Assembly (NCBI GenBank): GCA_024137785.1
Contig: JAHRHZ010000046.1
Location: 31,286,320 to 31,350,319 of the forward strand
Reading direction: 5' to 3'
DNA length: 64,000 bases
From: Ginglymostoma cirratum
Taxonomy: Eukaryota
Shown in pieces: positions 1 through 64,000 of the stretch (positions within the stretch are counted from its first letter, which is position 1; each line of letters opens with the position of its first letter). Position numbers and translations under genes: made by a program. A model generated the notes under the pieces. The model did not search any database. It was not told the DNA's origin and was given only the letters and a program-made list of their open reading frames with translations.

Positions 1-129
1 GACCCTTCTTCAGAAAACATGACCCTTCATTTTTTCTGAAGAAGGGTCTAGGCCCAAAACGTCAGCTTTCCTGCTCATCTGATGCTGCTTGACCTGCTGT
101 GTTCATCCAGCTCTACACCTTGTCACCTC
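1..129. mobile_element. PLE-derived hammerhead fold-back element (family A), left arm cut by the window edge
   Basis: 1-16 gacccttcttcagaaa is the reverse complement of tttctgaagaagggtc (33-48). The right arm matches 21221-21319. GAAA is mutated to AAAA. Confidence 0.85.
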
Positions 130-3100
130 GAATAGGAAGTCAAGTTTGCTATTCTGTTTGGCTCCCTAGGAGCATTTTAAAAAGATATACACTGTATATT
201 TGAAACTCTACAATACAAGGCGTCTGGTTTCTCAAATAAATGCTTGAACCTCCTGCTCACGAAACACATGCCATGAAACATTAATGCCTAGCCAAATTCA
301 GTTATCATTTTCCTAGGCCCTGTGTAAGTCCTTATTAAATTAATTTATCTTTTATTAATTCATGAGGACCTTAGCTTCATTTTAAAATGCCTAATTTTCC
401 TTGTGGTTCTCTGAATTTGGCTTGTCCCACAAAAAAGAGATGCCAACTACTGTGGTGGCTTCATAAATCCATAATTACTTAGCCAAGGAACACTCTGCTT
501 GGCTCAAGACTCTAATAAACTGCAGGTATAAATAGCCATTGGGAAAATCACCAACCACAAGCTACTTACTCATTCATTTAGTAATTCGATCCTAAGATGA
601 AAACAACATAATTAATTTGCCAAAATATATTTTGCACAATAATAATTACATTTCTACAACATGCTCCAGTTTCTGGGTTGAACTTGGCATGAGGTTTATC
701 ATATTGGATTTTCCACAGGAAGGTATGAGTTGGTTTCATGAATTTATACTAACATGTGCAGCTTGTATCATAGGTAGTATACAATGGGAGTAAATGAAAA
801 ATAATCTAATCTCCTGCATTTTATGATGGTGCCCTATCCTGCTGCGTCCTTTCTCCAGGAAAATGAAAGAGTGCTACCTAGTTCAAAAGTAGGCTTGATT
901 TACCCATGTAGAAAAGCGTAACAGCTTATCAGCAAAGATGAGATTTATATTGAACCTGCAGACTGCTTGGCATCTTGTTTGTTATAATGCACTCTTTAAA
1001 GTCTTGGTCTGCCAATAATATGGCATATACAATAACATTAAAAAAGTGTAATGCAACATGTATATGAAACTAATTTGTAAATAACATTTAAACCTGGGAA
1101 ACAATGTGAAAAGGCCAGAACCATCTGAAGAGGATTGCTTCTGTGGGCAAGTCAGCAAACATTGGTGGGTTGATTTAACATTGTAGGTGATAAAATAGTG
1201 GCACAGTGAAAAATACAAATAGTCCAACAAATGGGAAGAGGAGGCATCTTAGCTCAAAACAACAGGATTCCAGTATAACCCTGTGATTGAAATAATGAAA
1301 CAAGAATTAAAACTGGAAAAGAATGTCCCTGGTTGTTTCTGGATTTTGTATTTTTTTTAGAGAATTAACGCAATGGGAGTGAAACGGAGGTGGACTGGGT
1401 GCATTGAACACAGGAACAATGAGGAATAGATTTGTTTCTTTTTAATGTACATTTCTAATGAACCAAATGAGAATTACATTTGCACACTGGAATTTCACCT
1501 CTGGATAAAAATTTGCAGACTGGATCAGAAATTGGCGTATCATGCATCTGTTTATTCAGACATAGAAGAGTTAAAAAGCAGTGCAATTTGAGAGTAGGAA
1601 TGTCTGTCCCTCACCTATGCAAATACTGGTACTTTTGCATATTTGTAAGCCTTATTTCTTTTCAGAGGTTGCCATCAGGCGGTCTTGAATATGTAACCAG
1701 AAGTACTACTATACATTAAGGAATGCCTTCAAAAAATTGATTAGGATTCTCCAGCAGCCATCATCTGAGGGCATACATTTACAATTTTATTTGTCAAGAA
1801 ACATATTCACACACAATCACAAGAAATAGGAGCAGGAATGGTTCCCCGACTTCAAAGGAGTCACAGTCAATCCTTCCTGTAAGCCACTACTTTTCAGAAT
1901 TTAGTTTAATTGGCAGTTTCTGTTAAGAAAACTGAAAATGGAGGTTAATGAGTTCTGAATCTTGCCAAAAGCCTAATTCCTAATGAATCTCTGACCTCCT
2001 CTTTCAGCTAACATTGCTTCAGCGATGCCCAGTTTGAGCCCCAGATTATTTGCTACCCATGGGTTTTAATGTATGCTGTTCCTTACATTTGTTGATGATG
2101 AAACGCTGTGGCTAGGGTGTCAGCCATGCAGAATTTTCACACTTTTACAACAGTTGTCATCAGCCAAAGGTCTCACAGAACAAGCAGGATTAAGAGATAA
2201 GAGAGATAAAAGTTGGCTGTAAATTTGATTTATAAGATTCCAAGGAACAGTGCAAACTCAACTGATTTGCTGCCCATATTAATTAATGAATCACATGGGA
2301 AATTAGCCAAATTTTTTAAGCATTTTGTACATAAATCCAGATTGAACTATTTGCAACACTCATTTGGCATTTTTTTCTCAAACTTAATCACATGATTCTG
2401 CTTTACAATGTCCAAGTGCAGCACAATTACATACAATAAAAATAAGAGATTTTGTTTGTCAGCACATGGGATCTCTTCTGGACATGAATATAATGTACAT
2501 TGTCCTGAAATTGAAGAAAACCATCTCATTGTACCTTAATAAATCTCACTGTGACACAGTTTTACAAAAAGCATAAGAGAATCATATTTACTCGTCTAAT
2601 GCTTTCACAATGAGCAAAACTTAATTTCTCATATCTAGTATTGAATATCTCATATATTTCTCAATGCTGACTTCTAGTAAAGAGAGGATCACAAGAAAAG
2701 AGCTTCTGTTATCTGGAAACTGAAAAGGCTGCCCTTGTGGTGAAAAGCACAGTATTCATTTATACATTGTTTTAGAAACAAAAATTTCTTTAAAGAGCAC
2801 ACATCTTCCGCTCAAATAGCTTTTGTACAATGTGTAATGAGCTATCCTACAATCAGCAGTGCTAAATGCACATAATACATCGCAGATGTACAATATGTAA
2901 ACGTGCAAATATCATTTTAAAGCACATGTAATGCAACTGGATAAAATATACAACTAATTTTTTATTTAGTCAAATATTTCAAGGCAGGCTAAATTTCAGG
3001 AGTCTAGGTTGCGTCAGATGACCTGAAAATCTAGCTTCATTTGACCTTCAATAAAATGAAGGAGCTTTGCACACTTAATTATTGAAAATGCTTTTCGGAA

Positions 3101-8861: not shown

Positions 8862-9066
8862 GAGAACTACTGGAAACCTGAAACAAAAGCAGAAATTTCT
8901 GGAGAAACTCAATACGTCTGGCAGCATCTGTAGAGAGAAAGCAGCGTTAACATCGGAGGTCCAGTGACCGTTCTTTAAAATCCTCTGAAACCTAAAACAT
9001 TAACTTGGTTTTCTCTTCACAGATGCTGCTAGATCTGCTCAGTTTCTCCAGCATTTTCTGCTTTTG
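8862..9066. mobile_element. Decayed hammerhead fold-back element (family B)
   Basis: caaaagcagaaatttctggagaaact...gcagcatctgt (from 8884) is inverted relative to acagatgctgct...agtttctccagcattttctgcttttg (to 9066); similar to 56588-56720. Confidence 0.8.
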
Positions 9067-10121
9067 CAACAACTACATATCTTTCATAAAACTTGAGCCG
9101 TCCACCTCAATTCAAGGCAAGAGGATGCTGAACTGTGGATCTCAATTTGACGTGTATTACTAACTTGGCTTCAATCTCCCCAAGAAATTAGTTTCTTTTC
9201 TGAAGCACGTCTTTCAAATTTCAACCTATGGAGTATAAAGCTTTTGGGGAGCGTTAAAAGCTACAACTGGTCTCATTAAGTGAAATGAAATTGTAAACAA
9301 TTGATTTTTGATTGAGGGTTACTTTTCCACACCTGTTTTACTTTTCTTTAGTTGACAAAATGCCATCTGGCTGAAATGATGGGGTTTTAAAACTGATTGT
9401 GTGTTTCTGAAAGGAACTGGACCTAAATGGACTATAATTACCCAAAATCACACATTGTCACATTATTTTTGAATGCTTTCTTAGGGAGGATGAAATCAGT
9501 AAGCATTCTTCAGTGTAGCATGCAAAGGAAACATAGACATTGTTTTAAACTAGTACTTCTTTCATAAGCATTTAAATATTTTATTCAATTTAATTGTATA
9601 TTCCAGGCACAATCTCACACAAAACATGACAAGTTTAGATATTATTTTGCTCAGATGTATCTCCTCAGCAATTCTACATGTGGTCTGTAAATATCTTACG
9701 CAATGAAAATAACAAAAATTAAATAAGCAATTCTCATTTTTCTCCCCCCTTTAAATCTAAACAAAACTGGAATACTAAGAACAGAAACTTCTGAGCCCTT
9801 GAATGACATAGGCCACGGCAAGAAATTTAGGAGTTTCAAATGTCCAGAGAAGCCCTTCTCAACGCCAAAAGGAAAAGGCTCATTTTTAAACTAAGTGTTG
9901 GACATCGAGACAAGATTATCAATAATGAGCTGCAAGAGGCCTATGAACACAGATTATCACTCATTGTCACACTCATTATCTCACCTCATTAATGTGCTTG
10001 TTCCTCTTCTGGTGGAGTGATAGTGTCCCTACCCACAAACTGATAGGCCTAGGTTCAAGTCTAATCTACACCAGAGATGGGTGATAACAGCAAGCTGGGG
10101 TCAAAAACCCAACTGAGTCCT

Positions 10122-10214
10122 GGTGAAGAGTCACTGAATGCAAAACATTAACTCTGATTTATCTTCACAGATGCTGCCAGAACTGCTGAGCTTTTCCAGC
10201 AACTTCTGTTTTTG
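10122..10214 (+). mobile_element. Single-arm decayed family B copy
   Basis: aaacattaactctg...cacagatgctgccagaactgctgagcttttccagcaacttctgtttttg is nearly identical to 56612-56683. Confidence 0.8.
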
Positions 10215-12752
10215 ACTCCAGCTTGCTGCTTGGACTTCCAGATCTCCATTTTGGACACTTATTACAGATGTCTCAGGGTTCACTCTACTGGGGGTGAACA
10301 GCCACACCTCACATCCAAGGACCCTGGCTTCAGACAGGTAATATCTGCATCATCACAGTACATCTCCAATCCACCTAGTGTGTTCTGTATTTGAATGCTG
10401 CACATTGGAGCACACCAGCACCTTTCAGTGCAATGGAAGGATACTTTGCACAGAGGCACCCAACTCATGGATTGGACCTGGCTGCATCTCAGGGCTGCTT
10501 GCTCATTCTCTTACTGTTCACTTAGTTTGTGTGAACTTGGATGCTCACCTTGCCTTTTTGTACTTTGCTACCTCAGCCAGACCTGAAGGGCTCACAATAT
10601 TTCTGTCTTGCCTTGCAGCTTATCACAGGCACAAAGACAGGAAGCTTGTCAGCAGTTATTAGTCAAGGGATGGATATGTTGCTGTGCAGCACCTTGCAGT
10701 GTCGATCCCACAGCTACAGAGTGCAGAAGCCTAAACTGTAAACACACTACATACATGTACATCAACCAAATGGCCATGTCTCAAACTCAATAGCGAGTAG
10801 TCAGGAGGGATAGTTGACAGTCAGGGGCTCCCAGTACATCCAAGGGCAATGTCTGCTCATAATCCAGGGACTCAACACAGTCAGTTATCTGTTTGGGGTT
10901 TCAGATGTGCCATCTATACGCATAAGAATTTTTGCGTACACTGTGCCATAACATACACAGTGAAGAGCAACTCCTGACTGCCAACAACTGACTGGGTGCA
11001 AAGCTGCTATTTTAAGATGACACTGGTGCTGGGGACTCCAGGATATTCCAGCCGTGGAGAGTGCTTTCTCTTGTAGTGAGTTGGAGAATCAGGTTAGCAT
11101 CGGACCATGGCGCCATGGTACCTAGTTACTGAAGAGTGTTTGAGACGATCACATGAGAAAACTCACTAGGTCTCCTGGCAAAAAAAACGCAATGAAAATG
11201 ACACTTTGCTGATTGTTAGTAAGACTCAGCCCTACATTACTTCCTGGAGTCAGGAAATGGCATTGAGTTTATTAATTGGATTTCTCTATACTTTGATTCG
11301 GTTTAGGCTTTCGAACTTAAGCAATCAAAATGGGCCCAATGACTTAATAAGATGATTGTCACAATAAATTGGCATTTCTTGATTAAATTTACACACTTAG
11401 TTTTGCAAAACTGGTTTCTCTGCACTAAATTACATCCTGGGCTCTAGAAAATACAAGCATTCAACCGATTTAATGAGCATCTATTGGTAGATTCTCCTGA
11501 CCGATCATTCAGGATTGTTTATTTTCATTAGCCCTGAGTTATTTCTTATGAACAGCTTTTCTGTGGTAGGGACATGAAATGTTGACATGTTCCAGTTCTT
11601 TCGTTCTCAGGGATATAATCATCACTGGCATGACTGCATTTATTGCCCATTCTTGGTTGTCTGAAAATTCCCTTGAGCATTCTTCATCAGCGCTCAGCGA
11701 TTGTTAGCTTAAATGATCAGCTTTTGAGGCCATTTCAGAGGGCATTAAGCATTCACTGGGTAGTGTCAACTACAGAAAGTTTCACTCTCTGAAGATCAAA
11801 TGAATCAATTGTCAGGTTCTTGTGGCAAGCTTTTGAAAACTCAGTTTTTCAACTTTCCACAATGGATTTGATCTCCTAGCTTTTGGAGAACAGCTACTTG
11901 TTCAGTATCATCATCACTAAAATATTCTGAACTGCAGTTTCATGTGCGAAGTCGTTAGGTAAAAAAACGTAAAGATTTGCATTATTTATATAGCACTTGT
12001 CACAAACAATCGGCACCTCAAAGTGTGCTACAGCCAATTAAATATTTTTGAAGTTTGTCATTTGTTGTAATTTGCACAGCAAATTCAGATAAACAGCAAT
12101 ATGTTAATGACCAAATACCATTCGATATCATAAATATGATACCACAATACCCTCAACTAAAAAGTATTAATTTATATTCATTTTGATCTAATACAGTTTC
12201 TGGGCACTTTGGGAAATGAAGTAGAGTTGTTTGAATAATAGGAGTCCCTTTATAATACAGAGTGAGGAACTGATTGATGTAAAACTGTGATTCTATAGCA
12301 TCATTACTGTCAGAAAATTATATTTCAAATATGACAAGTTTCTTGAGGCATTGTGCACCACGGTTGCAAATACAGGACTTGTACAAAGAAATGGTGATGG
12401 AAATGTGCGCTTTAAGTATAACAATGTAAAATTCAATTTTGTACTCAGGGAACACAGGCTGACGTGAAACCTTTCTTCATTTATTGTGAACAGATAGTCA
12501 ACATTAAGAAAAAGCTTTGGGAAGTAAAGAGACCCAAGCGCCCTCTGATTTTCATGAGGATTATGTCATAATTAAGTGATATCCTGTGGTATTCCAATCT
12601 ATGTCCCCACACAAAATCTTCGGAGAGATAAAATATTCAGAAATCTATTGTTTCATCACTGGGAATACTCCGATTTAGAGTACTGACATCGGCAATGCAA
12701 CATATTCTGATATACAAGACATTGGGGCAGAAGACGTTTGTTTTTATAACAT

Positions 12753-12980
12753 CAAAATACAGCAGATGCTGGAAATCTAAAAGAAGCACAGGAAGTGGTG
12801 AGGCAACTCATTTAGTCTGACAGCAACTGTGGAGAGAGAAGCAGAGTAAACGTTTCGTCTCTGATACAACTCTTCTTTAAGTACTGAAAACATCAGACTC
12901 AAAACATTGACTCTGTTTCTTTCTCCACAGATGCTCCCAGATCTGTTGAGTTTTTCTAGCATTTTCTACATTTGTTTTCA
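12753..12980. mobile_element. Decayed hammerhead fold-back element (family B-related)
   Basis: ctgtggagagagaagcagagtaaacgtttcg is inverted relative to aaaacattgactctgtttctttctccacag. Confidence 0.75.
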
Positions 12981-19433: not shown

Positions 19434-21026
19434 ACATTCCCCAGAATTCACTATTGATGATGGGTTCATGAATTACATGAAGCCTCTAGTTACAGGGTGT
19501 TTATTAATGAGTAATGAGTTTATGAGTTTATTAATTCGTGATTATTCGTTTGATTTTATCTGATATTCTCTTGTTTCTCCCTCAACAGGGATCAATCTAA
19601 CTTCTTTGTCCCGTTTGCCTATAGGACGATGGCCTGATGTCCATCAAGCTAGGGAACTCACTCGCTCGAATAAATTTAAAACAGTACAAATGAAATCAAC
19701 CTAATAATTACATAATTTTATTTTACACAGTACTTTTGGGGTAAAATTCAACCTTGGGGTTGGGGTAAGCTCTCTTAAGGGTAATTATAGAATAGGTAAT
19801 ATGCACAACTTTCTAGTCTTTGAAGATTTTAAGCGGCAAATTGAACTGGGTTTATGATAGACAGGTGATCAGCCATTACCTCTTCTTTACCCATACCATT
19901 GTCTGCATTTCTCACTCTCACTGAGATTTGAATTTTGCCCGTTCCACTTCAATGATTCCAATCCCAAAAGTATCAATTGAAAAGATCTGTCTTCTTATGC
20001 TAACAAAATAAATGGTTTATTGCTTATAAAAATTAGAACATTTATAGTTATTTTAAACGGATAAGAACAGATACTATGTGTATTATGATTTTTTTTTAAG
20101 GTTGCATTGATCAATTTAATTTGCGCTGGTTATTAGCACCAGTCAAACACACAGCCAATAAAGTTAGCAATAAGCGGATATAAAACTGAACCATGTGCCT
20201 CATTTGAATGTTACTGTTAAGCTGCCGGCACATGATGAGGATGTACAATAAAATTGCGACTTGGAAAAGTGTTGTTGACATTTATAACACCACCTCTGAC
20301 ACCATCTCAAGTTTTCAGATGAGCAAACATTTCAAAGGTGGACCAATTGAAAATTGTCAGGCTGCTGTCTACCCTAATATATGTTACCAGCTGTTGTGAG
20401 GAGCTGACATCACTTGCCACAAAGTGATTGCTGAGTCTGAATGGTTTCATTTCATCTCTAACTCACTAAATTCTAAGGAAGCTTTCAAAACTTAACTGCC
20501 TTCAAGTTACACAAGAAATTGGTGTGAGAATATTTAACACATTCCTATGTAATTACTTTCTCTTTTACTTGTATGAACAACAAACAATTGAAAATAAAAG
20601 TCTTGATGCTTCTCCTAGACAGATAAGGATTAACAAACAACGACATTAAGCAAGTGATTACATTTGTGCAAGTCTAAGTGGAAGGCCCATGTCAATTATT
20701 ATTTTGAACAGAAGGGAAAAGTATATTTTTAGTACCTCCTCCAGAGTGAAATGTAAAATGGTAAAAATTGATTATTATGTATAAATTAAATAAGATTTCT
20801 CAGATCATTCTTGTCCAAAGTTCTTAAAAAAATTAGAGATGACCTCCAAGACAGCCATTATCCACAGTTAGCAGTTATTAATATGAGTTAACAGTATATT
20901 TGTCTGAAGCATTCGACCTACAATAGGGTGTGAATGCTAGGCAGAGGTTGTACACTGTGAAGCCATAAATTCACATATTGCATTGTGCTTGATCATAAAT
21001 TGAAAATGGGATGCAGTTTTACAAGA

Positions 21027-21352
21027 GTTAACAAGGTGCAGAGCTGGATGAACACAGCAGGCCAAGCAGCNNNNNNNNNNNNNNNNNNNNNNNNNNNNNN
21101 NNNNNNNNNNNNNNNNNNNNNNNNNNNNNNNNNNNNNNNNNNNNNNNNNNNNNNNNNNNNNNNNNNNNNNGGAGCAGGAAAGCTGACGCTTCGGGCCTAG
21201 ACCCTTCTTCAGAAATTTTTTTTTTCTGAAGAAGGGTCTAGGCCCGAAGCGTCAGCCTTCCTGCTCCTCTGATGCTGCTTGGCCTGCTGTGTTCATCCAG
21301 CTCTGCACCTTGTTATCTCAGATTCTCCAGCATCTGCAGTTCCTGCTATCTC
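21027..21352. mobile_element. Young hammerhead fold-back element (family A) with 15-bp TSD; contains a 100-N gap
   Basis: Near-perfect inverted arms meet at cagaaattttttttttctg. TSD tgcagttttacaaga at 21012-21026 and 21353-21367. Confidence 0.92.
21071..21170. other. Assembly gap (100 N)
   Basis: N run. Confidence 1.
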
Positions 21353-24235
21353 TGCAGTTTTACAAGATGCTCTTTTTATTAAGACAGTCTCCATCAGAAA
21401 AAACTGACTCAATGTAACTGTCGATGAAATATGAAAATGTCATGGGTTCTGTGAAACAAAAAGATAGGACATTTAACATTTAGAATTAACTATCTGCGAT
21501 CCATTATGAATAATACCTGATATGTGTTAAGAGAATTCCGGGTAGTTCTCAAAATTGAAGTGTTGTGGCAATAAATATAATGCACCCATTTTTTTCATTT
21601 GTACAATCAATCAAGCTCCATGACTGGACTGTTGTCCTAAAATTCATTTCCAAAATCTTCAATATCAAGAATAGACAGATCATGAACGAATCTTGGAAGT
21701 GTTAATATTTTCTCAGCTTTACCATCTCATCCACTTTTACTATATTTATGCATCCCTCCAGGCTTCATGTGTTATCAGGTGTTCTTCCTACATCTGCTAA
21801 AATCTTCTGTATAGAACATCTCATTTTCGTGACTTCAGAAAAAAATAAGCCAAGAATGAGCTTAGAATCTGAACAAAATCAAAAGCTGGTATTGTGTGGC
21901 TCAGACATATTCTGTCAAAGGTTCTGTGATTGACTCTCTTCATTTAGATCAAATGACAAAATAACTGGGCATTCAATTCCAAGTCCCTTTAATTTTCAAA
22001 TTTTCCCTTGTATCTCGCAGATGAAACAAAATAGCTTACGACTTTGATTAAAAGAATTAGAAGTATGAGTACAATAGGATAATTCTGTATTGAAATTGAG
22101 CAGACATCAATGAATTTTCTGTGATCAGTGAACGACACAAAGTGTCTGACTTGTTCAATGGAGCACTGTGCCTATGTGTGTGTATTTACAGGTACTGATT
22201 TCTTTTTAAGCATGTCACATCATGATACTGAAATTATTTCTGTCTGTGAAGAGAAATTGGTGCAATGTTTATTATGGTACAATTAAGTCAATTTTCTTCA
22301 ATATCTCCAAAGATTGACTTCTGTTCATATGTGACGCAACAGCAGAGACAGAATAAAGTAAAAATGCTGCCAAGTGTCTCAGCAGTATCTGGTAGGATCT
22401 TTTCCCCGAGAAAAAGTGACCTGTTATGTAAGTATAAATGGTTGGGAAGTGAAAGGTGGCAGTTTATTAACTGAGCCTGATGACCAATATCATGTAAACT
22501 CGATTGCAAGTGTCAGGAAGTCTAAAGCTGCAGAAGCAGTCATGAAGGATCAAATTGGAAGTACTTACCAATGGGTAAATCGCAAGCCTGCAGAGTTTTA
22601 ACTTCATATCTAACAGCTATTCTTGTTGTACAAAAACTCCAAAAAGGTATGACTAATATCACAGCCTCAAATTAGATTGACAAGGCACATTATGAGATAA
22701 CTGACAATTGTTACGGCTGTTGCATATGATAAACATGTAACATGCATCCATTCAAGAAGTTAATACAAAACAGAAATATTATTGACGTCAAGAGGTCTGA
22801 TAATAAGGTACTGGAGCATAAGTTAATGTTCACATTTCCTTACTTAGCTAAAACAACATTATAAATTAAGAAGATTTGTACTGTGTGTCTCCGCATAAGA
22901 AAGAAAGAAAGACTTGTTAACTGAATGATGTTGGTTTGAATGGCTGTTAATGGTGGCCCAATAATGAAATTATAGAATGACATGTAAGGTACTGATTACA
23001 ATGGAGATAGTGTCAGGACAAGGACCAAGTGCAGTGGGAAGCAAACCAGAAATTAGATGGATTCAACAGCCCAACTGTGTGTGTGCCTTGACTTTCAATG
23101 CAGAGTGAAAATCCAGCCTGAGTCAGGTTTTTTTTGTGACATGTGAAAAGCCACTGTAAGTGCAGGATTAGTAGGAAGATAAAATATGGACAAAACAGCT
23201 TCTGTTACCTTAAAACTTTTCATATGACTGATAGTTGCTACTGTGTTTTAGCAGTTATATAATTATACATTTAATTATTCAATGTCACAATCAATCAGTC
23301 TGTTTTATGTCATTTAGATACTGAAAAATTCTCACTCTGTAAAACATAGCCTGTGGATTTTTACTCCTCTATTGAGACTTTTTGCAGTGTTTCTGTACAG
23401 AAAATCTGAAGAAACTGTTTTGGAATGGGAAGATGTGTGACATTAGCATGTATTTGCAAGTGTTGTCTGATTTGTTAATCTGTTTTTCTCAAATACGTCT
23501 GAGTTTTGGCTAATGTGCAAAATTAGCTTTTGAACATCAAGCCCTGAGTACCCATTTATAGAATTTTATGTGAAAATTTTAATCACATGCAATCCTCAAG
23601 TATGGGTTAAAGTGCTGCAATGAAAAACTCTAATGATGTGTAACTGCTTTAGTTTACTTTTGTATTCCTATTCTAATCTAACTAGCCAATGAATCATTTC
23701 ATTCATTCATTTAATTATTTGCTAGTCTAATGTTTGCTTGTTAAATTAATGAAAATTTCATCTCAATAGAATAAACAAGTTGGACTAGTGTAATTACAAT
23801 GTGAGGCCCACCTCTACTAGTTCCATTGTGAATGTCAGACTAGCTAATGTAAGTGTTTGTATTTACAATCTGAATTCACTGTATGTTCAATCTATGTAGG
23901 TAGTGTGTACTATCTATGGGATGGATCACATTACTCACCAAGACTTCTTCAACAGTATCTCCCAAACACATGACCTCCACTGCAAAGGTGAAGAAGGAAA
24001 CAGACACATAGGAATACGATTACCTCCAAATTCCTTTCCAAGCTACACAGTCTCTTGGCTTGGATGGTCTTCACTGTTGCTGGATTAAAAATTCTAGAAA
24101 ACTTGATCTAACCATCCTGTGGGGAACCTTCACTGTAAAGATTGAAGTTAATATTGATGCTTCCTCCACGTGGCACGTGCTGTTTGGGTTTAGAACTTGT
24201 GAGCTATATTGACTGATAAAATCTTCAGTGATTAT

Positions 24236-25668: not shown

Positions 25669-25770
25669 AGTTTTGAAGAAGGGTGACTGGACCCGAAACA
25701 TTAACTCTATTTTATTTTCACAGATGTAGCCAGGCCTGCTGAGTTTCTCAGCAATTTTTTTTTTTTGTTT
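25669..25770 (+). mobile_element. Single-arm family B copy beginning at the hammerhead
   Basis: agtt-ttgaaga-agggtgactggaccc-gaaacattaactc...cacagatgtagccaggcctgctgagtttctc. Confidence 0.8.
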
Positions 25771-26764
25771 GTCCCCAAGTCACTAAAACTCCATATCTCT
25801 GCCATTAATGGAATCTCATTCTAAGATTGAGCTCCTGCACAATTTGGTATCCTACCATGCACGGTGTGAAGATACAAAACTTATATTTTATTGATTATAA
25901 GGAGCACTTGTTTTCATCTTACTATCCCAACCTTGTTTTCCACAAAGCTCAAGTATTCATCTGAACATTTGCTATTTCTAGATACAAATTCTCAGACACC
26001 TTCTTTCCATTGCACAGCCTTTATCAATTTCCATCTTGCTAAAAACAGCTACCAGTCATCTATCCGTCCTAAATTCTGATTCTTTTTCACTCCAATCTTC
26101 ACCTTTACAAATAACTCCTTGTTATCCAACATATACAATTCAGAACTCTAGTTCTAGCTTATTGATCCCACAATGCTTCAGCCTCTCTAATTCTAAAACC
26201 TCTTCCACATTAACGTAACCAGCCAACTTTGGCCCTTTGGTTCTAGTTCATTTGGGCATACTTCACTTTCCATTTCAGCATCAATACCTAAACAGTCAGT
26301 TACTTCCATGCTACTCCCTGGAATACACCCAGAAAAGTAGGCCATCTTTCCTGTTCTTTCTATTGTTGCTTGGTGTCTATTTCTCTTCTGCCAATTGCCT
26401 TGGAATATTTTTAATTTAATAGCCCAAAACTAGTGCCAGCTGTTGTTGTCTATTTGTTTCAATGTTAGCCAACTCAAATGCTATTATTCGTTTATTGCCA
26501 AATATCGCCAACACCAATTCCACGGAAAACACCGCAAAAATCTATACTATTCACTGAATAATACTAATGAAGATATAATAATGTATTATAAAAATGGTAA
26601 TGTATGTTCTACAATAACTTGTGTCATATTAACCAGTGCATCTTCTAACTCATCCTGAGTGATGCCATGGTCTAGGATGCGTAAGCAGTTATATCCGTTT
26701 TACATCACAATTGTTATTTCCATGAAGAACAATGACATAAAGGTTTCAAGCATCAACTATGAAA

Positions 26765-27152: not shown

Positions 27153-27512
27153 TTGAATCTTTGTTTAATGAAGCTTTATGGTGAAACTGAATGCGCTTTG
27201 CATGAAAGCAGAATTATTTATGACACAGACCTCTTTATTTCGTTGATGGCCTTTAACATTATGTAATAAAAGCTTCTATTGTGAATAGCCTCAGATATTA
27301 TTTTGATGATTGCTACTTTTAATCCTTTCCACAAAGATACCAGGTTGTTCACATTAAACTCAGATTTAAGTTTAAAAAAAGTAAAAAGTTGTTAGAATGC
27401 AAAACTGTATAGCCAGTATCATTTTGACAGGAACCCAAAACAAAAGTCATATTTCCCATTAACTCTTTAAAAGTTCACTACAGCAGTAGTAGTTAACACA
27501 TACAGCCCAGAT

Positions 27513-28142
27513 ATAACAAGCATGGGGCTGGATGAACACAGCAGGGTCAAGCAGCATCATAGGAGCAGGAAAACTTGACGTTTCGGGCCTAAACCCTTNN
27601 NNNNNNNNNNNNNNNNNNNNNNNNNNNNNNNNNNNNNNNNNNNNNNNNNNNNNNNNNNNNNNNNNNNNNNNNNNNNNNNNNNNNNNNNNNNNNNNNNNNN
27701 NNNNNNNNNNNNNNNNNNNNNNNNNNNNNNNNNNNNNNNNNNNNNNNNNNNNNNNNNNNNNNNNNNNNNNNNNNNNNNNNNNNNNNNNNNNNNNNNNNNN
27801 NNNNNNNNNNNNNNNNNNNNNNNNNNNNNNNNNNNNNNNNNNNNNNNNNNNNNNNNNNNNNNNNNNNNNNNNNNNNNNNNNNNNNNNNNNNNNNNNNNNN
27901 NNNNNNNNNNNNNNNNNNNNNNNNNNNNNNNNNNNNNNNNNNNNNNNNNNNNNNNNNNNNNNNNNNNNNNNNNNNNNNNNNNNNNNNNNNNNNNNNNNCG
28001 GGCCTAAACCCTTCATCAGAAAAGGGTTTAGGCCCGAAACGTCAAGTTTTCCTGCTCCTATGATGCTGCTTGACCTGCTGTGTTCATCCAGCCCCATGCT
28101 TGTTATCTCAGATTCCCCAGCATCTGCAGTACCTTTTATCTC
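27513..28142. mobile_element. Young hammerhead fold-back element (family A, same variant as the PLE at 36791); contains a 400-N gap
   Basis: Inverted arms 27513-27598 and 28023-28106. TSD-like cagcccagatataa at 27503-27516 and 28160-28173. Confidence 0.9.
27599..27998. other. Assembly gap (400 N)
   Basis: N run. Confidence 1.
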
Positions 28143-28829
28143 TGATACAATTTTTACCCCAGCCCAGATATAATACAGTTTTTTACTTTCAGTAGATGAG
28201 ATTCTGGCAGTCCAGAAACACTATTGGATAGGAGAACTGAAATCCGCTGTAAACGTAATTTCGCCTTCCACCAGCGCAGCAAACCTGTCTGTTTTCCAAC
28301 GAGGTTCAAACTGAGTTGTTACACAGTTACCATTACAGCTGCTATCAGGAAATCCTGCTGACCGCACAAGATATTCATTGTCTGCCCTTATTTCTTCTCT
28401 GTATGAATTGAATTATTAACTTGCATCTCCAGCTCCAAAAAATTAGTTTGATTCTATACACACTTACATTGTGATATTACTCATAAAGAACTAGGATCTA
28501 ATTGTTATGAGGACATACATCCAAGGTCCTGCAGACAATGGTGCAGTCTAGTCAGAGACCAAGGAACAATGCCACAGTCTCCCAGCCACTTGGAGAACCG
28601 TAAGAAATACAATTAACGAACATCAGCCTTTTAAGCCTAAAAGTGTAATTATTTCTGAGAACTAGAAAACATGACATGGCACAATAAGTGTCTGTGAGTA
28701 AATAAAACTGTTTTCCATACTTAATTTTATATGAGATTGAGAAAACGCAACACAAATTGTTGCTGGAGAGGGAAAACTCTGAGTGAATCATGTCAAAACA
28801 AAATGATTGCTTCAGGCCGTGATGAATTC

Positions 28830-36165: not shown

Positions 36166-36790
36166 CTGATGTAGTGAGGTAGGTAGGTAAAGAGGGATTG
36201 GCAGTAAAAGGTGTGAAGATGGCTATCAGAATCCCCTCCACATTTCTCAATGTTGGGTGCCTTGATCAGGCTAGGGACTGGCTTTGAAGAAGGAGTCGCC
36301 TTCTTCCTCTATCTTCACTTCAGGAGATGACACAAGCAGGTTATCCAGGTTACTTGTCACATTCTCGGTATGGTAATGGGTCAACCTATTCCTCAAGCCA
36401 GGTGAATACTAGTGCCGGTAGGATGAGGGGCTTTAATGGTCATTTAGTGTCCACAAAGCTATCAAGTGGTGGCAGGGTCAACAACAGACTTTCTTGCTAC
36501 AGATTTAATCACGGTAGAGGCAGGAAGGAGACGGAAAGCTCACCTGTCACTCTCCCACCCAATTACATGGGTCCTGGACTCCAAGTATGCCACTAGAGGG
36601 GGCTGAAGATTCCAACTATCTGTTTCTCTCTGAAATATTTTCCTTCTGGATTGATGAAGCTAAACTTTGTTTTTGTGGTTGCACAATTCAGACATAGACT
36701 ATCAACATGTGAGGTTTTGTAGTTTGGCAAGGGAAGCAATGACCAATAAGTAATGGAATATCACTGTCCAATAAATAATGGAATAGCAGT

Positions 36791-38773
36791 GATAACAAGC
36801 ATGGGGCTGGATGAACACAACAGGCCAAGCAGCATCACAGGAGCAGGAAAACTTGACGTTTCGGGCCTAGACCCTTCATCAGAAATGGGGGAGGGGAAGA
36901 GGGTTCTGAAATAAATAGGGAGAGAGGGGGAGGCGGATAGAGGATGGATAGAGGAGAGGATAGGTGGAGAGGAGGCAGACAAGTCGAAGAGGCGGGGATG
37001 GAGCCAGTAAAGGTGAGTGTAGGTAGGGGGGTAGGGAGGAGATAGGTCAGTCCAGGGAGGACGGACAGGTCAAGGGGGCAGGATGATGTTAGGAGATGGG
37101 GGTGTGGCTTGAGGTAAGAGGAAAAACAGGTTAGGAGGTGGAGATGAGCTAGGCTGGTTTTGGGATGCGGTTGGGGGAGGGGAGATTTTGAAACTTGTGA
37201 GATCCACATTGATGCCATTGGGCTGCAGGGTTCCCAGGCTGAATATGATTTGCTGTTCCTGCAGCCTTCGGGTGGCATCACTGTGGCATTGCAGGAGGCC
37301 CAGGATGGACATGTCATCTGAGGAATGGGAGGGGGAGTTGAAATGGTTCGCGACTGGGAGGTGCAGTTGTTTGTTGCGAACTGAGCACAGGTGGTCTGCA
37401 AAGCGGTCCCCAAGCCTCCGCTTAGTTTCCCCGATGTAGAGGAAGCCACAACGGGTACAGCGGATGCAGTATACCACATCTGCCTGATGTGGAAAGTCTT
37501 CTTGGGGCCTGGGATTGGGGTGAGGGAGGTGGTGTGGGGGCAGGTGTAGCACTTCCTGCGGTTGCAGGGAAAAGTGCCGGGTGTGGTGGGGCTGGAGGGG
37601 AGTGTGGAGCGGACAAGGGAGTCGCGGAGGGAGTGGTCCCTCCGGAAAGCAGATAAGGGTGGGGAGGGAAAAATGTCTTTGATGGTGGGGTCTGATTGCA
37701 GATGGCGGAAGTGTTGGAGGATGATGCGTTGGATCCGGAGGTTGGTGGGGTGGTATGTGAGGACGAGGGGGATTCTTTTTTGGTTATTATTGCGGGGACG
37801 GGGCGTAAGGGACGTGTTCCGGGAAATGCGGGAGACACGGTCGAGGGCGTTCTCGACCACTGTCGGGGGCAAGTTGCGGTCCTTGAAGAATGAGGACATT
37901 TGAGATGTATGGGAGTGGAATGTCTCATCCTGGGAGCAGATGCGGCGGAGGTGAAGGAATTGGGAATAGGGGATAGCATTTTTGCAGGAAGGTGGGTGGG
38001 AGGAGGTGTATTCCAGGTAGCTGTGGGAGTCAGTGGGCTTGAAATGGACATCGGTTTCTCGGTGGTTACCTGAGATGGAGACAGAGGTCCAGGAAGGAGA
38101 GAGAAGTGTTGGAGATGGTCCAGGTGAACTTCAGGTTGGGGTGGAAGGTGTTGGTGAAGTGGATGAACTGTTCGAGCTCCTTGTGGGAGCACGAGGCGGC
38201 GCCGATGCAGTCATCAATGTAACGGAGGAAGAGGTGGGGTTTAGGGCCAGTGTAGGTACGGAAGAGGGATTGTTCCACGTAACCTACAAAGAGGCAGGCA
38301 TAGCTTGGGCCCATGTGGGTACCCATGGCCACCCCTTTTGTCTGTAGGAAGTGGGAGAAATTGAAAGAGAAGTTGTTGAGGGTGAGGACGAGTTCGGCTA
38401 AGTGGATGAGGGTGTCAGTGGAGGGGGATTGGTCAGTTCTGCAGGACAGGAAGAAGCGGAGGGCCTTCAGGCCATCAGCATGGGGAATACAGGTGTATAG
38501 GGACTGGATGTCCATCGTAAAAATGAGGTGTTGGGGACCGGGGAATTGGAAGTTCTGGAGGAGGTGGAGGGCGTGGGTGGTGTCACGGACGTAGGTAGGG
38601 AGTTCCTGGACCAAGGGGGTGAAAATGGAGTCTAGGTAGGTGGAGATAAGTTCGGTGGGGCAGGAGCAGGCGGAGACAATGGGTCGACCAGGGCATTCAG
38701 GTTTGTGGATTTTGGGGAGGAGATAGAAGCGGGCGGTGCGGGGTTGGGGAACGATGAGGTTGGAGGCAGTGGG
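36791..38773 (-). mobile_element. Penelope-like retroelement (probably Neptune-type), 5'-truncated and frameshifted; RT + GIY-YIG endonuclease + 3' hammerhead module
   Basis: RT motifs FYLLPKIHKP..GRPIVS, TMDIQSLYT, QTKGVAMGTHMGPSYA, FLRYIDD. Linker PLVLTYHP and PCNRRKCYTC. GIY-YIG domain VVYCIRCTRCGFLYIGETKRRLGDRFADH...HFN...LGTLQPNGIN. Flanked by tggaatagcagt (36779-36790) / tgggatagcagt (38774-38785), a 12-bp TSD with 1 mismatch. Confidence 0.95.
36852..36885 (-). ncRNA. Minimal type I hammerhead ribozyme motif in the PLE 3' region
   Basis: UUU-CUGAUGA-A-GGGUCUAGGCCC-GAAA-C-GUC^AAG: intact catalytic boxes, stem II GGGU/GCCC, palindromic ACGU in place of stem III, short stem I UUU/AAG. Confidence 0.8.
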
Positions 38774-41109
38774 TGGGATAGCAGTATTGCCTTATCCTAT
38801 CAAGTTTCTGATCATATCAGATTGCACTTAATTTATCTTCATCACCAGATTGGGAGTAGGTGGATTTGCAGGTTTCTTCAATCAGAAAAAAAGGCACTCC
38901 ACCCACATTGCATATATTTAATCGCTCGCTGCATTCTCTTCACCTGTAATCAAAGTTACCAAACAACTTGTAGAAAATCTACTTCATATCTGCAGAAATA
39001 TTTGACACAAGATTGAAACTTTTTATTTGGCTGTACTTTTCCCATAATAAAAAGGACAAAAGAGCAACTTACAGCACATGTATGTACACTTGTATTAAAT
39101 ACTTCTTGGTTACCTCATTATTCACTAAAATTAAGTGTTCTAACATTTCAGAAACCCTTCAGCATCTGTGTCGAAAACAAACTGGGGAGTTGCCGTGTGT
39201 GACAAAGTGATGAAAAAAAAATTCAACAAGGTTTTTACATTAATTGTCACATGCCCACGATATAAGCATATGGCAATTACATAGTTACAATTTAGGGTTG
39301 AGAGAAACAGATTATTTTGGGTAGTTTATATCTTCATACATTTGGTTGCAGCAACATCACAGTTCCATCTGGTTCAGACAGGCAACTTTTCATCTTTTCT
39401 TTTGCCCGTCTGAAAGCTGGGTGGCCCCAGGAAATATCAATATATCTATAATTTTTAACAAAGAAAACACACTTTACATCACCTCCAATATATATCAGTA
39501 AGAGTGATTGCTGGGTTTCAAACATTGAAAATTTTGAACAATTGCCAGCTTTAATAATTCAAAGGTCCCAAGAGTAGGAATTGATCAAACCGTGCTTTAA
39601 AAAAAACTCACTAACAATTAACCAAAATTAATTTGACTGTTGATTTGAACTGAAGAATGTCACCAAAAATTCTTCAAAAAATAAACTCAATTTTGCATGC
39701 TCATTTTTTGCAGTCTTTAAGTATCTGTTCCATTTTAAAAGGGAGGAATAATGATGTAATCCTCCATACATACCAACCTTTGTATCCAGCTGTCAGCACT
39801 GCAGGATAAGTGAATGGATTCCATAGCACTCTGTGGTGCTGTTTCATCAGTCAGCTCAGCTAAGGTGTAACACATTGCTGTTTATCTTTTGCGCCTGATT
39901 CAAGAGTTGCAGAAGTCAGAAACCCAAAGAGGCAACAAAGGCCGATGATTATCATTGCACTTTGAGCACAGCGACAACTCAAAGTCTCAGGCAGATCTAA
40001 TGGAAAAGTTGTTTTAAAAAAAAGTCAAAATTAAACTGAAAATGTTGCCTCTGTCATTGAGAATAGACGTAATACTGTTACCACAATGTGTTGCATAGAA
40101 ACTACATCAAACCCTCCGAAGTGACTGACTGAAATCTATAAATTAATTGGAACCTTTCAAGGAAATGTATTCTACCACAGCTATTTCCTCCCATAACCAC
40201 AGTCACACAATTACAGGGCTTTCTAAGACACAACTGTTCTAATTTTTTTCTCATTTACTTGACTGAAGCTACTAGGTCCATACTGAGAGTAACATTAATG
40301 AACCCTTGTCACTCTCCTGAAATCAATTGTCCACATGCATGAACTGAAGCAGTGAAGAGTCAGCTTTGTGAAGGCTTCACAAGCAAAGTACAATCTTGCC
40401 TTCACCTAATATCCATTGATTCATCCTCCTAGCTACTGATCAACAATGTACCCAATTTCCAAAAAAAGGCTCTTCTGTGAAAAGAAAATCATTTATCCAT
40501 GCAACTCACTGTGATTTCAATTAAATGAACGTAATTTTCACCCCCAAAAGTAGGTTGCTTTGGGTTGCATGCAAAATAAAGACAAAAAAAATCTGAAAAT
40601 CCCAAAATTGATCAAACCAGAGAATAAAAGGCTGGATCTGGACAAGAAGAAACAGCAGTGTTTCCTCCAGGACCAACAAGTTTTCTTGTGCACACCCCCA
40701 CCCCAACCCCGCTCATCACCATCATTTGCCAAATTCCCACTACCTCAAATGCAGACTCTCCAAATTCCCCTTCCCACCAACAGAATGTAACTCACCCAGT
40801 CTACTCCCTCTCCCTATAATCTTCCCTTTCCCAGATCACAGAATCTTCCCAATGTCATCCTCCTTTCTGCCTCTGCCTCAAACCTTAGCTGTGGCACAGT
40901 GCTGAGGCCAGCAGCCTCTCAGTATATGCTTCTCATCCAGTGCTTCTACCCTGCTCCCTTTCCATTTCTCCATAAATAAGATTAATAATCTGTGAATTTT
41001 ACAGGACAGCAAATGCTGAGACTGAATTTAAAACCTGTATCATCCAGAGGAATATACTAGTAATCTACTAATTGCACCATGCAGTTATGTCTTGAATACA
41101 GCATCTAAC

Positions 41110-55985: not shown

Positions 55986-56548
55986 GGAACACATCTGGAA
56001 TAAGAACTGGGCTCTGGAGTGTGTCCGGGCAGAGAACGCTCTCAGTCTGCCAACATCATGTCAACTGTGTCTAGCAGTGGCTCAGCTTCGTTTAGATCGA
56101 TAACTGTATCAGCTACAGGGGACCGCCTGGGTGTCAGTCATACCGTCACTGCACCAGCACTGTAGTGGCAAGCCTTGAAGTTAAATCATATCCATGTTTC
56201 TTAAGGGCGGAAAATCGAGCAAATAAAAACTGAACTCTATTCGCCAGTGTTGCAGATAGCAGTGAGTTCAATTCGCTGCTTCAAGTGGCGTGGATACAAC
56301 AATCCCAGTGTGGAACTATACATCCCGGTTTATCCAGTTTACCGAGAACCTCATGTAACTAACTCTGTATCTTTCCCCGCCCCGATACCGCAGGAAAGAA
56401 TGTGATACTTTGAATCGTGGCCCATTACAGGCCAATGCCAGATGGGTTGTAACCGTTTAGGTTCACTTTGCACAGGCCAGTGTACACGGTCTAAATCAGA
56501 TAACTTCAGAGGCAAGGGTCTATCCATGACAAACATAAAGATTTATTT

Positions 56549-56720
56549 GTTAACGTTTCGGGTCCGGTGACCCTTCCTCACAACAGGTTCTGAGAAAGGG
56601 TCACCAGACCCGAAACGTTAACTCTGTTTTTCCTTCCAGGTGCTGCCAGACCTGCTGAGCTTTTCCAGCAACTTCTGTTTTTGTTCCTGATTCACTGCAT
56701 CCGCTGTTCTTTCGGTTTGT
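56549..56720. mobile_element. Family B hammerhead fold-back element with 14-bp TSD
   Basis: gttaacgtttcgggtccggtgacccttcctca is inverted relative to tgagaaagggtcaccagacccgaaacgttaac. TSD ataaagatttattt (56535-56548) / ataaagatttgttt (56721-56734). Confidence 0.92.
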
Positions 56721-57210
56721 ATAAAGATTTGTTTTTTGTTTTATTATTCCAGCCAATATCTTGCGTCCAACAATATATATCTGCTTTTGATTACAGGATG
56801 GCATTAACGAGTTCAAGTAAAATAAAGTATAAAACATCTATTTTAAGCTTTTAAATGCACTTACAGATGGGAGAACTGATGATGTCTGTTGGAGTGAAAC
56901 CTTCAGACTATCAAATCAATAAACCAAGAGATCGAATTACATGCAGTGTGACAGCCAGAATGAACAGCCCGGCATTTTGTACCCTGCAACAGGAGACAGA
57001 AAGCTGACCGTTAAATGTTCTAATCAGCTTGAAGTCCTGCAATCTGCTTTTGTCTGGAATACTCATTATAAACATCAGCAAGGAGGTCAAATCATGTGCT
57101 GAGAATGGTTCTTGCACTTTTGCAATGTTATCCACTCTGTCAAATCCAGTGATCACACGGGAGGGGTGCTTTTTGAACGTCTGGCAGTGCCATTTTTACA
57201 CTCGCAGTTG

Positions 57211-57330: not shown

Positions 57331-57483
57331 AATGTTGAAGATGCTGCAAATCTGGAAACACAGAAAATACTGGAAAAACTGAGCAAGTCAGGTAACTTCT
57401 GAGAAGAGAAGTGAACATTTCAGATGTTTCTCTCTCCTCAGATGCTACCTGATCTGGACTTGGAGCATTTTCTGTTACTTCAG
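57331..57483. mobile_element. Highly decayed fold-back element (family B-related)
   Basis: acagaaaatactggaaaaactgagcaagtcaggtaacttctgagaagaga is inverted relative to tctctcctcagatgctacctgatctg...agcattttctgt. Confidence 0.6.
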
Positions 57484-60800: not shown

Positions 60801-61278
60801 TCAGTTATAGTTCTATGGCCCTTTTTCAGGGATATAAATAGGTAAGTAACTGTTGCATCATGCGTTAGCTTTTGTCCCTTAGAATCCATCCACAGAATCA
60901 CGGGGTAGGATGAAGAGATACAACTGTATGGACAGGTGAAGGATGAAAGAGTCAAAGCAACTGCCTGGGAAGTGATACTGTACAACTCATGCACCCTAAC
61001 AAACTCCGAAACTTGCCCTCTGCAAGCTCTGAACAAGTTCTCTAATTTACTTATAAAAGTTGCAGAATCGGGTGGATTACTGGGCCCTAATTTTCCCCAT
61101 CCAGCTTAAATTTGGAAGAGGCAGGAATGGTGATTAAAAAAAAAACAGGCATCCCGACTGGCAGCTTTTATGGTCCCACTCACCTCTGTTTGCTTCCTTC
61201 GTGGGATCTAATAATCCTGTCCAGTCTTCAAGGTATGAACTTGATCTTCTATGGTGACTGATATTTGACTGATTTTGA

Positions 61279-61500
61279 TAAAGAGGATAGCAAGAACTGC
61301 AGATGCTGGAGTCAGAGTCGATACAGTGTGGAGCCGGAGGAACACAGCAGGTCAGACAGCATCAGAGGAGCAAGAGAGTTGACGTTTTGGGCCTAAACCC
61401 TTCATCAGGTCCCGATGAAAGGTCTAAGCCTTAAACATCAACTCTTCTAGTCCTCTAATGCTGCCTGACCTGCTGTGTTCCTCCAGCTCCACATTGTATC
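61279..61500. mobile_element. Hammerhead fold-back element (family A-related) with 12-bp TSD
   Basis: Inverted arms centred on cccttcatcaggtcccgatgaaagg. TSD gactgattttga at 61267-61278 and 61501-61512. Confidence 0.9.
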
Positions 61501-64000
61501 GACTGATTTTGACGTTAGCTGTTGATATAGCACGTTGACAAACAATAAATCTCTGCAATCTACAGTTTATTTTGCAAAATGCAAGGGAAAATCTGCTCTT
61601 TAAGTGGATAATTGATATTGAAAGCCTTGTTAAAGCAGACCTGGACTCTCTTTGTCATTTGGTGGGACATATCTGAAATTCTATCACTTTATCAGTACAA
61701 ACCCTTTCATTTCCCTGGAGGAGAACTAGATTTTCCATTGGGTAGAAATGTAAGAGACAGCTAGTATGCATGCTATGACAATCTGTTTAGGACCATTATG
61801 AAAAAGATACATAATTATAATATTCCTCTATTGCAAGAATATTTTTGACTAATTGATACTTCTGTGAAATACAGGAAGTACGTATTCCTTTGTTTTCATT
61901 GGTAACTGTGCAAAACTTATACTAGAAAAAGTATACTCTGACACACTGAAATACTATGAACATTTAACTTCAGCATTAGCCAATATATTCTCATTCCTTT
62001 AACTTTATACATCATATAACTTTGTCAATAGACATGATTAAAACAATTCAGGATAATGAAATATGAAAAATCAACTCAGAATAACATACAGATGTCACAT
62101 ACCAAAACAAAATCTGGTGAGAAATTCTTGCTGCTTAAAATAAAATGTATAAAATCCTCGGTTATACAGTGAAGTGCATTAATATAACAAAATTCAATCA
62201 AAAGTGAACCATTAATAATTAAGTTGAAAGAATAAAAGGTCACCTCATATTCTCAATAGTTACACCATTTCCCTCCCAATACTTCAGTTGTGGGATTCAA
62301 ATCAGTCAAAACTAATATTGCTGGCTCAAGAGATTCTCTGTTTTACATAAGATAAAAGATCCAACATGATTTTAACCAAATTTAGATTGAAGGTAGATCT
62401 CAGGAAATTCATTACAGTAAATGATTTCGCTTTAGCCACAAGAACACTTAATTAATTGATTTTGTTGCATCCTTCCTGTAAGGTTCATCTTCTGAAATGC
62501 ACAGTAAAAATAACACAAAGGTCACTGTAACAGGAGCTTTGGTAATGATGGGCGTCAGCTGGGTAAATCAATTCTCGTCTGGGGTCATGTTTAAAAATGA
62601 TTAAAATACGTGGTAAATAACTTCATCTTCGTTTCCTTACCACAGAAAAGCATGGTACCCTGTAGATACTGTAGCAAAATCCAGCAATGAAAAGGTATTC
62701 GTAACAAAAAAAAACACATCATGTTTATTATCAGATAAAATAAAGAGATTCCAACAGACAAAAGATTGTTACAAAGAGCAAGATTTCTCCTGATGTATTG
62801 GTAGATCATTTGATTGAAAACAGTATTCTCTCTCTCTGTCTCTTAAGAGTTGTCAATTTACCAATTCAATCTGGTTACAGATCCCCAGTATGCTCCACTG
62901 GGAATCTATATCACTGACTATAAAAGGTCTCAACTAATCCTAATTTTCTTTTCAGTTTTACATAAAATCGTCCTTTACCAAGCCATCCAAACATTGTTAA
63001 AAGAAGACACGAATGATCTTGTGGGTCCACTGATATGCTTTCATGTCAGCGAGGGTTATAATCCACCACCTTGTTCATTACAGGCTAGTGTTTTATTAGT
63101 AATGAATACAACACACAGCATGGACAGTAAAAGACATTGGGCACTGGACTGTCAGCCCTGTTAGTCTAGGTTAATTCTTAAAATGTCAACACTGGGTTTG
63201 AACTCTAATACTTTAAATGAATATTCTCTAAAATAAAATCTAATTGATCTTCTCTGGCAGTCCTCATGAGCATTCCTGGTTTCAAGATATCTTGTTAAGT
63301 TTAGTTGTGATGATGGAGCTGTGTTAAATTGGCCTGTCCCTTTAAAGCCACCTCCTTTGTACAAAGTGAATCAAACTGACCAGCTTTGATGTCAGTTTGG
63401 GGTTGAAAGAAGTTGTTGAGAAAAGTGCCTGTAGATTTGCAGCTGTTTGCAAATGCCAATTTTTACCCTTGAGGAAGTTAGGTTAATAATGTCATACAAA
63501 CCATTGAGAAATGACTGACATTCTTTATCATTCTCAAAGACGTTTTTCTCAAATTCATTTTGCATCTGTAAGTAGTTGCGACACTTTGAAATGTGATGCC
63601 TTACATGAAGAATAACATGGAAAGTTTTTAGTTTCAAGATCAACCAAATCTTGCATAGCCCATTGATTCATTCATACACAACAGGTCAATCTTACAGTTA
63701 GTGTTTAATATTATGCTAGCAGTTATGATCTCCATCTATGGTTGTTAAAAATAATTTAATATTAACCTTTTGAACTGTACCCATATCCCTTGAAAAATCA
63801 ACTATGTTCATTCAGCATCCATTATGGATGAACACCACCACATGCGGCGCTCCCAATCCAAAAGTAACAAATTAGCAGTTCTCCTGATTCCAATGGAAAT
63901 TTGATGTCAGTTTGTTATTATCCATTGTGCTCAATGCAAAGACAAAACCTGCCCTAGACCCCTGATTTTACTGAGATAGGATTTTCAAGTTGGGGAAGGA

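Follow-up and report, generated by a model that had tools for sequence, protein, structure and literature searches.

Stub-sized head-to-head insertions of Penelope-like elements in Ginglymostoma cirratum and their likely origin by priming at two fixed sites on one RNA

What are the short hammerhead-bearing palindromes that are scattered through the Ginglymostoma cirratum genome, and how were they inserted? We addressed this question in a stretch of 64,000 nucleotides (nt) of the forward strand (assembly GCA_024137785.1, contig JAHRHZ010000046.1, positions 31,286,320-31,350,319), referred to here as the window. The initial annotation listed 13 such insertions, described them as mirror-symmetric fold-backs of the end of a Penelope-like element (PLE) and proposed that this end module is mobilised as a separate unit of ~150 nt, similar to a short interspersed element (SINE) or retrozyme. 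End-module arms are present at all 13 positions and the main inverted repeats are real. We favour another origin for them, as stub-sized head-to-head insertions of endonuclease-bearing (EN+) PLEs, likely produced when each nick of a staggered cut primes at one of two fixed positions along a single RNA. We put the probability of this reading at about 70%.

Insertions were counted in a sample of 1,076,400 readable bases from 19 records, the window included. The sample is non-random, consisting of four 200-kb blocks, the window plus 100 kb of adjacent sequence and 14 individual stretches, and loci from targeted searches were excluded from sample counts except where named. All arm coordinates are relative to position 0, the last base of the GUH triplet at the predicted hammerhead cut site. 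The inner end of an arm is the point where it meets its partner, and the outer end is either short (S) or tailed (T). We found 163 family A arms and kept 158 of them; a second, independent count of A and B pairs was made by profile search of the same sample. Arm identity beside assembly gaps was left out as evidence, since assembly can force identity. The profile count gave 162 A arms, 136 B arms and 17 C hits in the 1.08-Mb sample, or approximately one insertion per 5 kb, similar to the density first noted in the window.

Of the 158 family A arms, 58 are single and the others make up 50 head-to-head pairs. Two wide pairs among the 50, which lack a target site duplication (TSD), are possibly not true pairs and two more possibly belong to a related family. 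The most informative feature of the insertions is the asymmetry of their outer ends, which was missed when the arms were described as mirror-symmetric. In family A the short arm ends near +66 and its partner near +100, the latter carrying a tail of ~34 nt. Among the 50 pairs, 42 combine one S and one T arm, one is S+S, none is T+T and seven are unclear, making S+T 42 of the 43 classifiable pairs (p=1e-11). The profile search returned 30 S+T, two S+S and four unclear pairs for family A (n=36), and 18 S+T, one T+T and eight unclear pairs for family B (n=27); family C has two equivalent outer ends near +57 and +90. This near-universal pairing of one S with one T end suggests that the enzyme copies one RNA twice, once per DNA cut.

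Flanking sequences and arm lengths were also analyzed. A TSD score of at least 10 was found for 35 of the 50 A pairs, compared with 0 of 400 shuffled flank pairs, with TSD lengths of 11-22 bp as scored and 11-16 bp in most. An A pair located within a family C copy duplicates 14 nt that are present once in intact C copies, providing a paralogous empty-site check. Gap-free short pairs in the sample (n=25) are 151-279 bp in length, and long copies with arms of 0.3-2.9 kb share the same order of TSD, inverted arm, arm and TSD, as in a 3.1-kb insertion with a 15-bp TSD. Arm lengths are matched within pairs (6 long-long, 3 mixed and 24 short-short; n=33, p=2e-4, two wide non-pairs omitted). Pairing between target and RNA at the priming sites averaged 2.9-3.2 of 6 positions versus 1.4-1.6 in controls, a figure that is biased because the TSD edges were picked by maximising the repeat. 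Four candidate A/B hybrid pairs were considered as proof of two templates and rejected, none having a TSD.

The inner ends are likewise non-random, in contrast to the random endpoints that, according to the initial annotation, ordinary 5' truncation of full-length PLEs would leave. Among 118 gap-free A arms, 36 end at -35 to -28, none at -43 to -36 and four at -100 to -44, with seven at -3 to +4. Family B inner ends concentrate at -33 to -30. We refer to this boundary as the wall. Genome-wide, junctions in which both arms run to -30 gave 2,521 exact matches (control 0), some of them duplicated across gaps. Junctions with one arm at -30 and the other ending at ~-26 to -11 gave 1,315 and 706 matches in overlapping sets, forming a base-by-base series, and these graded junctions show microhomology or small fillers. 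Short loops varied among the 50 sites listed in which both arms reach -30. Such heterogeneous centres are evidence against a master palindrome and, together with TSD lengths of 11-22 bp, do not fit the identical palindromes with fixed TSDs that had been named as the mark of true miniature inverted-repeat transposable elements (MITEs).

The two arms of a pair also tend to agree at a two-state position in hammerhead helix II. Arms were discordant in 39 of 1,181 genome-wide junction matches, and a hand count of the first 100 matches listed gave 44 C/C, 53 T/T and 3 mixed. As C/C and T/T are nearly equal, ~50% mixed pairs would be expected under independent draws.

What does the wall at -31 represent? 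Among 25 loci containing the 5' open reading frame (ORF) region, two start at -31 (L184 and L192), one at -33 (L185) and one at +1 (L194), and three are partial tandems (L191, L197 and L198). In full-length copies the tail continues into the ORF, which starts near +140. Long copies have the module (-31 to +100) at their 3' end and full-length copies have it at their 5' end, so that it forms both ends of the autonomous element. Upstream of the wall there is a TATA-like box, beginning at a distance of 30-31 nt for long A copies (42 of 43), 29 nt for B copies (3 of 5) and 27-31 nt for C copies (2 of 2). By TATA and initiator motif rules, the wall base itself matches the initiator pattern. Because the wall, the full-length starts and the TATA-like box 31 nt upstream coincide, -31 is likely the start of transcription by RNA polymerase II (Pol II), as judged from the box and the initiator-like base. 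A structural stop could also occur at the wall, since the wall base is the first base of hammerhead helix I in A and B. An extra G at the arm start, as would derive from a cap, was seen in 7 of 22 cases (p=0.13), but is confounded with the templated -32 base and was dropped.

Beyond the outer end, 7 of 13 young tailed arms, including the one at 27513 in the window, agree with the ORF-ward sequence in 5-6 of the 6 nt that follow (0.6% expected by chance), indicating that the template often ran on into the ORF region. At six loci (L184, L185, L187, L192, L201 and L203) the 5' part of the element is immediately joined to a module that begins near -31, which looks as though the reverse transcriptase (RT) had switched templates on reaching the 5' end of the RNA; partial tandems could arise in this way. 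The full-length copy L194 starts exactly at +1, and one pair in a sample block (contig C16) is joined +1 to +1, a hint from these sequences that ribozyme-cleaved RNA may be a minor, occasional template in vivo. The ribozyme does not seem to set the insertion ends.

The candidate source elements are coding. The element at 36.8-38.8 kb gave Pfam matches to RVT_1 and GIY-YIG, the domains of EN+ PLEs, and the family A module indeed matches the last ~95 nt of this RT/GIY-YIG element at 36791, as first reported. Genome-wide (4.36 Gb), its RT had 50,246 first-look candidates, of which 150 were scored. One locus (L123) has an open frame of 850 aa, and the ORF carries a CX4CxxC motif. Passages of PMC8557442 tie a CX2-5CxxC zinc-finger linker before the C-terminal endonuclease to Neptune; the CX4CxxC motif fits this pattern, and by this motif the sources would be Neptune-like PLEs. 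RT-thumb/GIY-YIG coding sequence precedes each of the A, B and C modules by 0.2-0.8 kb, and the partial tandems and inverted pairs with a one-sided tail correspond to the pseudo-long terminal repeats (pseudo-LTRs) of EN+ PLEs. The module has the sequence motif of a minimal hammerhead core, with a helix I of 3-4 bp and a helix II of 5-6 bp. Folding of the whole module was no more stable than that of shuffles, and an Rfam scan gave no hammerhead match. Open frames of 2,000-9,000 aa that resembled tandem arrays were set aside as products of N gaps in the loci fetched. Overall, the palindromes are probably the shortest insertion class of at least three EN+ PLE families (A, B and C), and probably not a separate SINE or retrozyme.

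The features of the window are as follows.

1..132, forward strand: family A pair whose left arm is cut off by the edge of the window; the centre and a short-ended right arm (34-132) are present.
8868..9068, unstranded: old family B head-to-head pair, clear TSD absent.
10088..10231, forward strand: family B arm (10118-10231) within a 21-bp inverted repeat, TSD absent.
12751..12975, unstranded: old family B pair, left arm tailed, right arm short, degenerate 14-bp TSD (2 mismatches).
21012..21367, unstranded: family A pair, short left arm with a 100-N gap, tailed right arm, both to -30, 15-bp TSD.
25671..25783, forward strand: lone family B arm from -31, without partner or TSD.
27503..28173, unstranded: young family A pair, 400-N gap, tailed arm running beyond +100 into ORF-ward sequence, 14-bp TSD.
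31091..31560 (right end approximate), unstranded: family D inverted pair, hammerhead-like motifs outermost, split by the next insertion.
31324..31518, unstranded: family B insertion, tailed left arm (-32 to +103), short right arm, 14-bp TSD.
33179..33341, unstranded: family C pair, tailed left arm (+90), short right arm (~+57), hammerhead core in neither arm, 14-bp TSD.
36779..38785, reverse strand: long family A PLE, 5'-truncated and frameshifted, with RT, CX4CxxC linker and GIY-YIG; short end; 12-bp TSD (1 mismatch).
36855..36886, reverse strand: candidate minimal hammerhead motif; 36886 is position -31 and 36855 the predicted cut site.
36911..36917, reverse strand: TATA-like box, putative promoter, its start 31 nt upstream of position -31.
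56535..56737, unstranded: family B pair, left arm just -31 to +3, right arm tailed, 14-bp TSD (1 mismatch).
57336..57441, reverse strand: old family B arm, weak partner, TSD absent.
61267..61512, unstranded: old family A pair, left arm tailed, right arm short, 12-bp TSD.

All six TSDs of 12-15 bp reported initially were recovered, at 21027 (15 bp), 27513, 31338 and 33193 (14 bp each), 61279 (12 bp) and 56549 (14 bp, 1 mismatch); a TSD search at 8862, 10122, 25669, 31091 and 57331 found none. The layout first given, with two inverted arms and head-to-head hammerhead motifs between TSDs, fails at four sites: 25669 is a single arm, 33193 has no core, the motifs at 31091 are outermost and the left arm at 56549 spans -31 to +3. 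Family D is a dispersed repeat (31091-31560 in the window and L208-L220) with a TATAAA box ~45 nt before a hammerhead-like motif near its 3' end; a link to a PLE ORF was sought and none was established. Genome-wide, young palindromes contain gaps of 100 or 400 N, and the centre is often present twice, once on each side of the gap.

Taken together, stub-sized insertion by paired priming could proceed as follows. Pol II transcription would start at -31, and an enzyme dimer would hold one RNA, its two active sites starting at +66 and +100, respectively. The two nicks of a staggered cut would prime the two cDNAs and the stagger would give the TSD; the earlier suggestion of one cDNA per nick fits this geometry. 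Priming on the 5' module copy would run off the RNA end after ~95-130 nt and yield stubs, and priming on the 3' module copy would yield long arms. The two antisense cDNAs would then be joined at their 3' ends through microhomology or short fillers; stubs have no TATA-like box, and most would be dead on arrival. A wider proposal, which we advance tentatively and hold at somewhat less than even odds, is that PLE integration is obligately paired (a dimer, one RNA and two fixed starts, one per nick), so that a single step would yield hammerhead palindromes by the hundreds of thousands along with the inverted pseudo-LTR and the one-sided tail, and that the same enzyme can re-copy whole stub palindromes from read-through transcripts, creating a facultative non-autonomous family.

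Several observations weigh against paired priming on one RNA. Many A arms (58 of 158) have no partner, and gap-free single A arms have a TSD in 13 of 48 cases, some hiding a 5-13 nt stub of the opposite end. Only 6 of the 27 family B pairs have TSDs, with TSD scores dropping with age. A few arms, such as the one at 56549, end at neither priming site; this arm (56549-56583) and arms at three sample sites have their outer ends close to the cut site, at +3 to +14. Young long loci carry mostly the T variant, so that the concordance between arms may mean subfamilies active at different times; it could also come from conversion between arms. For a PLE of the green anole, no strand difference in the start site was seen in vitro (passages of PMC11167929). 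In RNA from a polyA run, reads on a partial-tandem copy showed no pile of starts or ends. Finally, two old A palindromes 15 kb apart (L221 and L222) have a common 162-bp core that is 96% identical and flipped relative to the tail, with different TSDs, indicating that whole stubs are sometimes copied or converted. Such a core would be expected if a read-through transcript of one copy had undergone paired priming, or if local gene conversion had occurred.

The last of these cases bears on the idea that short non-autonomous RNAs, either SINE- or retrozyme-like or read out from tailed 3' pseudo-LTRs, are mobilised in trans with the same paired priming. We consider this unlikely. Short arms pair with short arms, indicating that a short-template class exists; long tailed copies all retain the TATA-like box and could yield a short RNA; one palindromic core is found at two sites; and PLE-derived retrozymes have been described in vertebrates (bioRxiv 10.64898/2026.07.22.740005, in part). 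However, the shared centre of L221 and L222 occurs just twice genome-wide, and stubs share sequence variants and the start base with full-length elements. Tailed arms often run ORF-ward, and the module does not form tandem arrays in the sample, where arms no more than 70 nt apart comprise 55 head-to-head, 0 tail-to-tail and 8 tandem neighbours. Passages on non-LTR retrozymes (PMC7229834; bioRxiv 10.64898/2026.07.22.740005) describe PLE-related, non-coding units with type I hammerheads, as here, that are head-to-tail tandem, ribozyme-cut and circularised. In contrast, the stubs are head-to-head and share sequence with the coding element, and their ends lie 31 nt upstream of the cut: 36 of 118 inner ends fall at -35 to -28 and 7 of 118 near the cut. 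A separate unit of ~150 nt, as first proposed, is not supported: full-length elements carry the module at their 5' end too, long copies share the layout, 7 of 13 tailed arms continue ORF-ward, and the centres are heterogeneous.

Self-priming, in which a T-primed cDNA folds back, copies itself and is then cut or stopped at the short site, is a doubtful alternative that we rate as quite improbable. It accounts for identical arms and head-to-head order, and was earlier proposed for inverted junctions of rotifer PLEs (PMC3846280, in part), but it does not allow the S arm to extend further inward than the T arm. Among 26 gap-free S+T pairs the S arm reaches further inward in 14, the T arm in 5, and the two are equal in 7; the S-further pairs include -887 versus +71 and -378 versus +34. 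Later central deletions could explain some of these S-further pairs, and less easily the young long ones. In addition, a short-primed fold-back is unable to supply the tail.

DNA MITEs copied from a master palindrome are very improbable: the insertions are short, palindromic and TSD-flanked and certain junction types recur, but their ends are asymmetric, TSDs of 11-22 bp flank insertions of 151-279 bp, recurrent junctions carry both helix II variants and grade base by base, and there is a continuum with RT-coding copies, upholding the earlier view of an RNA-derived, PLE-derived origin. The chance that the inverted arms are assembly artefacts is equally slight: many young pairs do hold 100- or 400-N gaps, some with centres duplicated across the gap, but 25 gap-free short pairs have diverged arms and TSDs, and raw RNA reads contain opposite-strand joints.

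These joints come from the polyA run, in which 39,133 reads mapped to the partial-tandem copy, deep over the module and similar on both strands, with a sharp drop at -31. The opposite-strand joints lie at -27 to -32, one of them represented by 48 reads from 37 starts, and palindrome junctions therefore exist in molecules outside the assembly. A second RNA run gave 12 reads in total.

How do these insertions compare with known systems? The comparisons refer to the passages covered of each paper. An inverted truncated copy with a one-sided tail and TSD is already known for PLEs: EN+ PLEs combine an RT and C-terminal GIY-YIG with an inverted, 5'-truncated head-to-head copy, a 30-40 nt tail at one end and TSDs, and share the assembly trouble at such sites and a promoter in the pseudo-LTR (PMC3846280; PMC8557442; PMC2377424). 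In contrast to those elements, the minimal form is dominant here (~1 per 5 kb), a single upstream base usually marks the end of both arms, and S and T ends are coupled, one each, nearly always. TSDs are 11-16 bp here versus 8-10 bp in the rotifer PLE examples, and a TATA-like box is present, whereas D. virilis Penelope is described as TATA-less. The minimal hammerheads of PLEs in PMC4209133 match those found here (helix III absent, helix II of 5-6 bp, helix I of 3-4 bp). That work reports minimal hammerheads in opposite-strand pairs separated by 100-700 bp, as well as many solitary motifs left by truncated PLEs; the insertion anatomy, ends and TSDs of the hammerhead pairs are not described in its passages covered here.

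A parallel in mechanism is Poseidon of the green anole in vitro, where two internal RT starts bound the tail, both strands are nicked and extended, hammerhead cleavage is dispensable and a dimer is predicted (PMC11167929). In that system Poseidon shows neither a strand difference in start site nor target homology, whereas here each nick uses a site of its own and 6-9 nt of pairing with the RNA are seen at some targets. The ORF starts ~140 nt after the cut site here versus inside the ribozyme in Poseidon.

A different comparison is offered by twin priming of L1, in which both nicks prime on one RNA to give an inversion, the second primer lying at a variable internal site and the parts being non-overlapping. 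The insertions described here would share the priming of two nicks on one RNA but have both sites fixed, ~34 nt apart, and for this reason the arms are mirror copies.

We found no publication on the strict S+T coupling, the start-site wall or the shark stubs, parts of which may be held in older PLE-structure papers, supplements, Dfam or Repbase. The origin of PLE inverted repeats and the one-sided tail has been called unresolved (passages of PMC3846280, PMC8557442 and PMC11167929), and paired priming, if true, would explain this old puzzle of PLE integration. The value of the insertions lies in a mechanistic test rather than in a new element class: the genome is a very large natural data set that separates models, with sharp predictions for the existing in vitro system.

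The palindromes also break assemblies and are liable to mis-annotation as MITEs or, given weak Rfam matches, as microRNA hairpins. In the window, the palindromes at 21182-21258 and 33233-33320 gave sub-threshold Rfam microRNA matches. Unrelated to the palindromes, other RT-coding retroelement fragments, presumably LINE-like (from a long interspersed element), lie at 41928-43503, with a Pfam RVT_1 match at 41928-42377.

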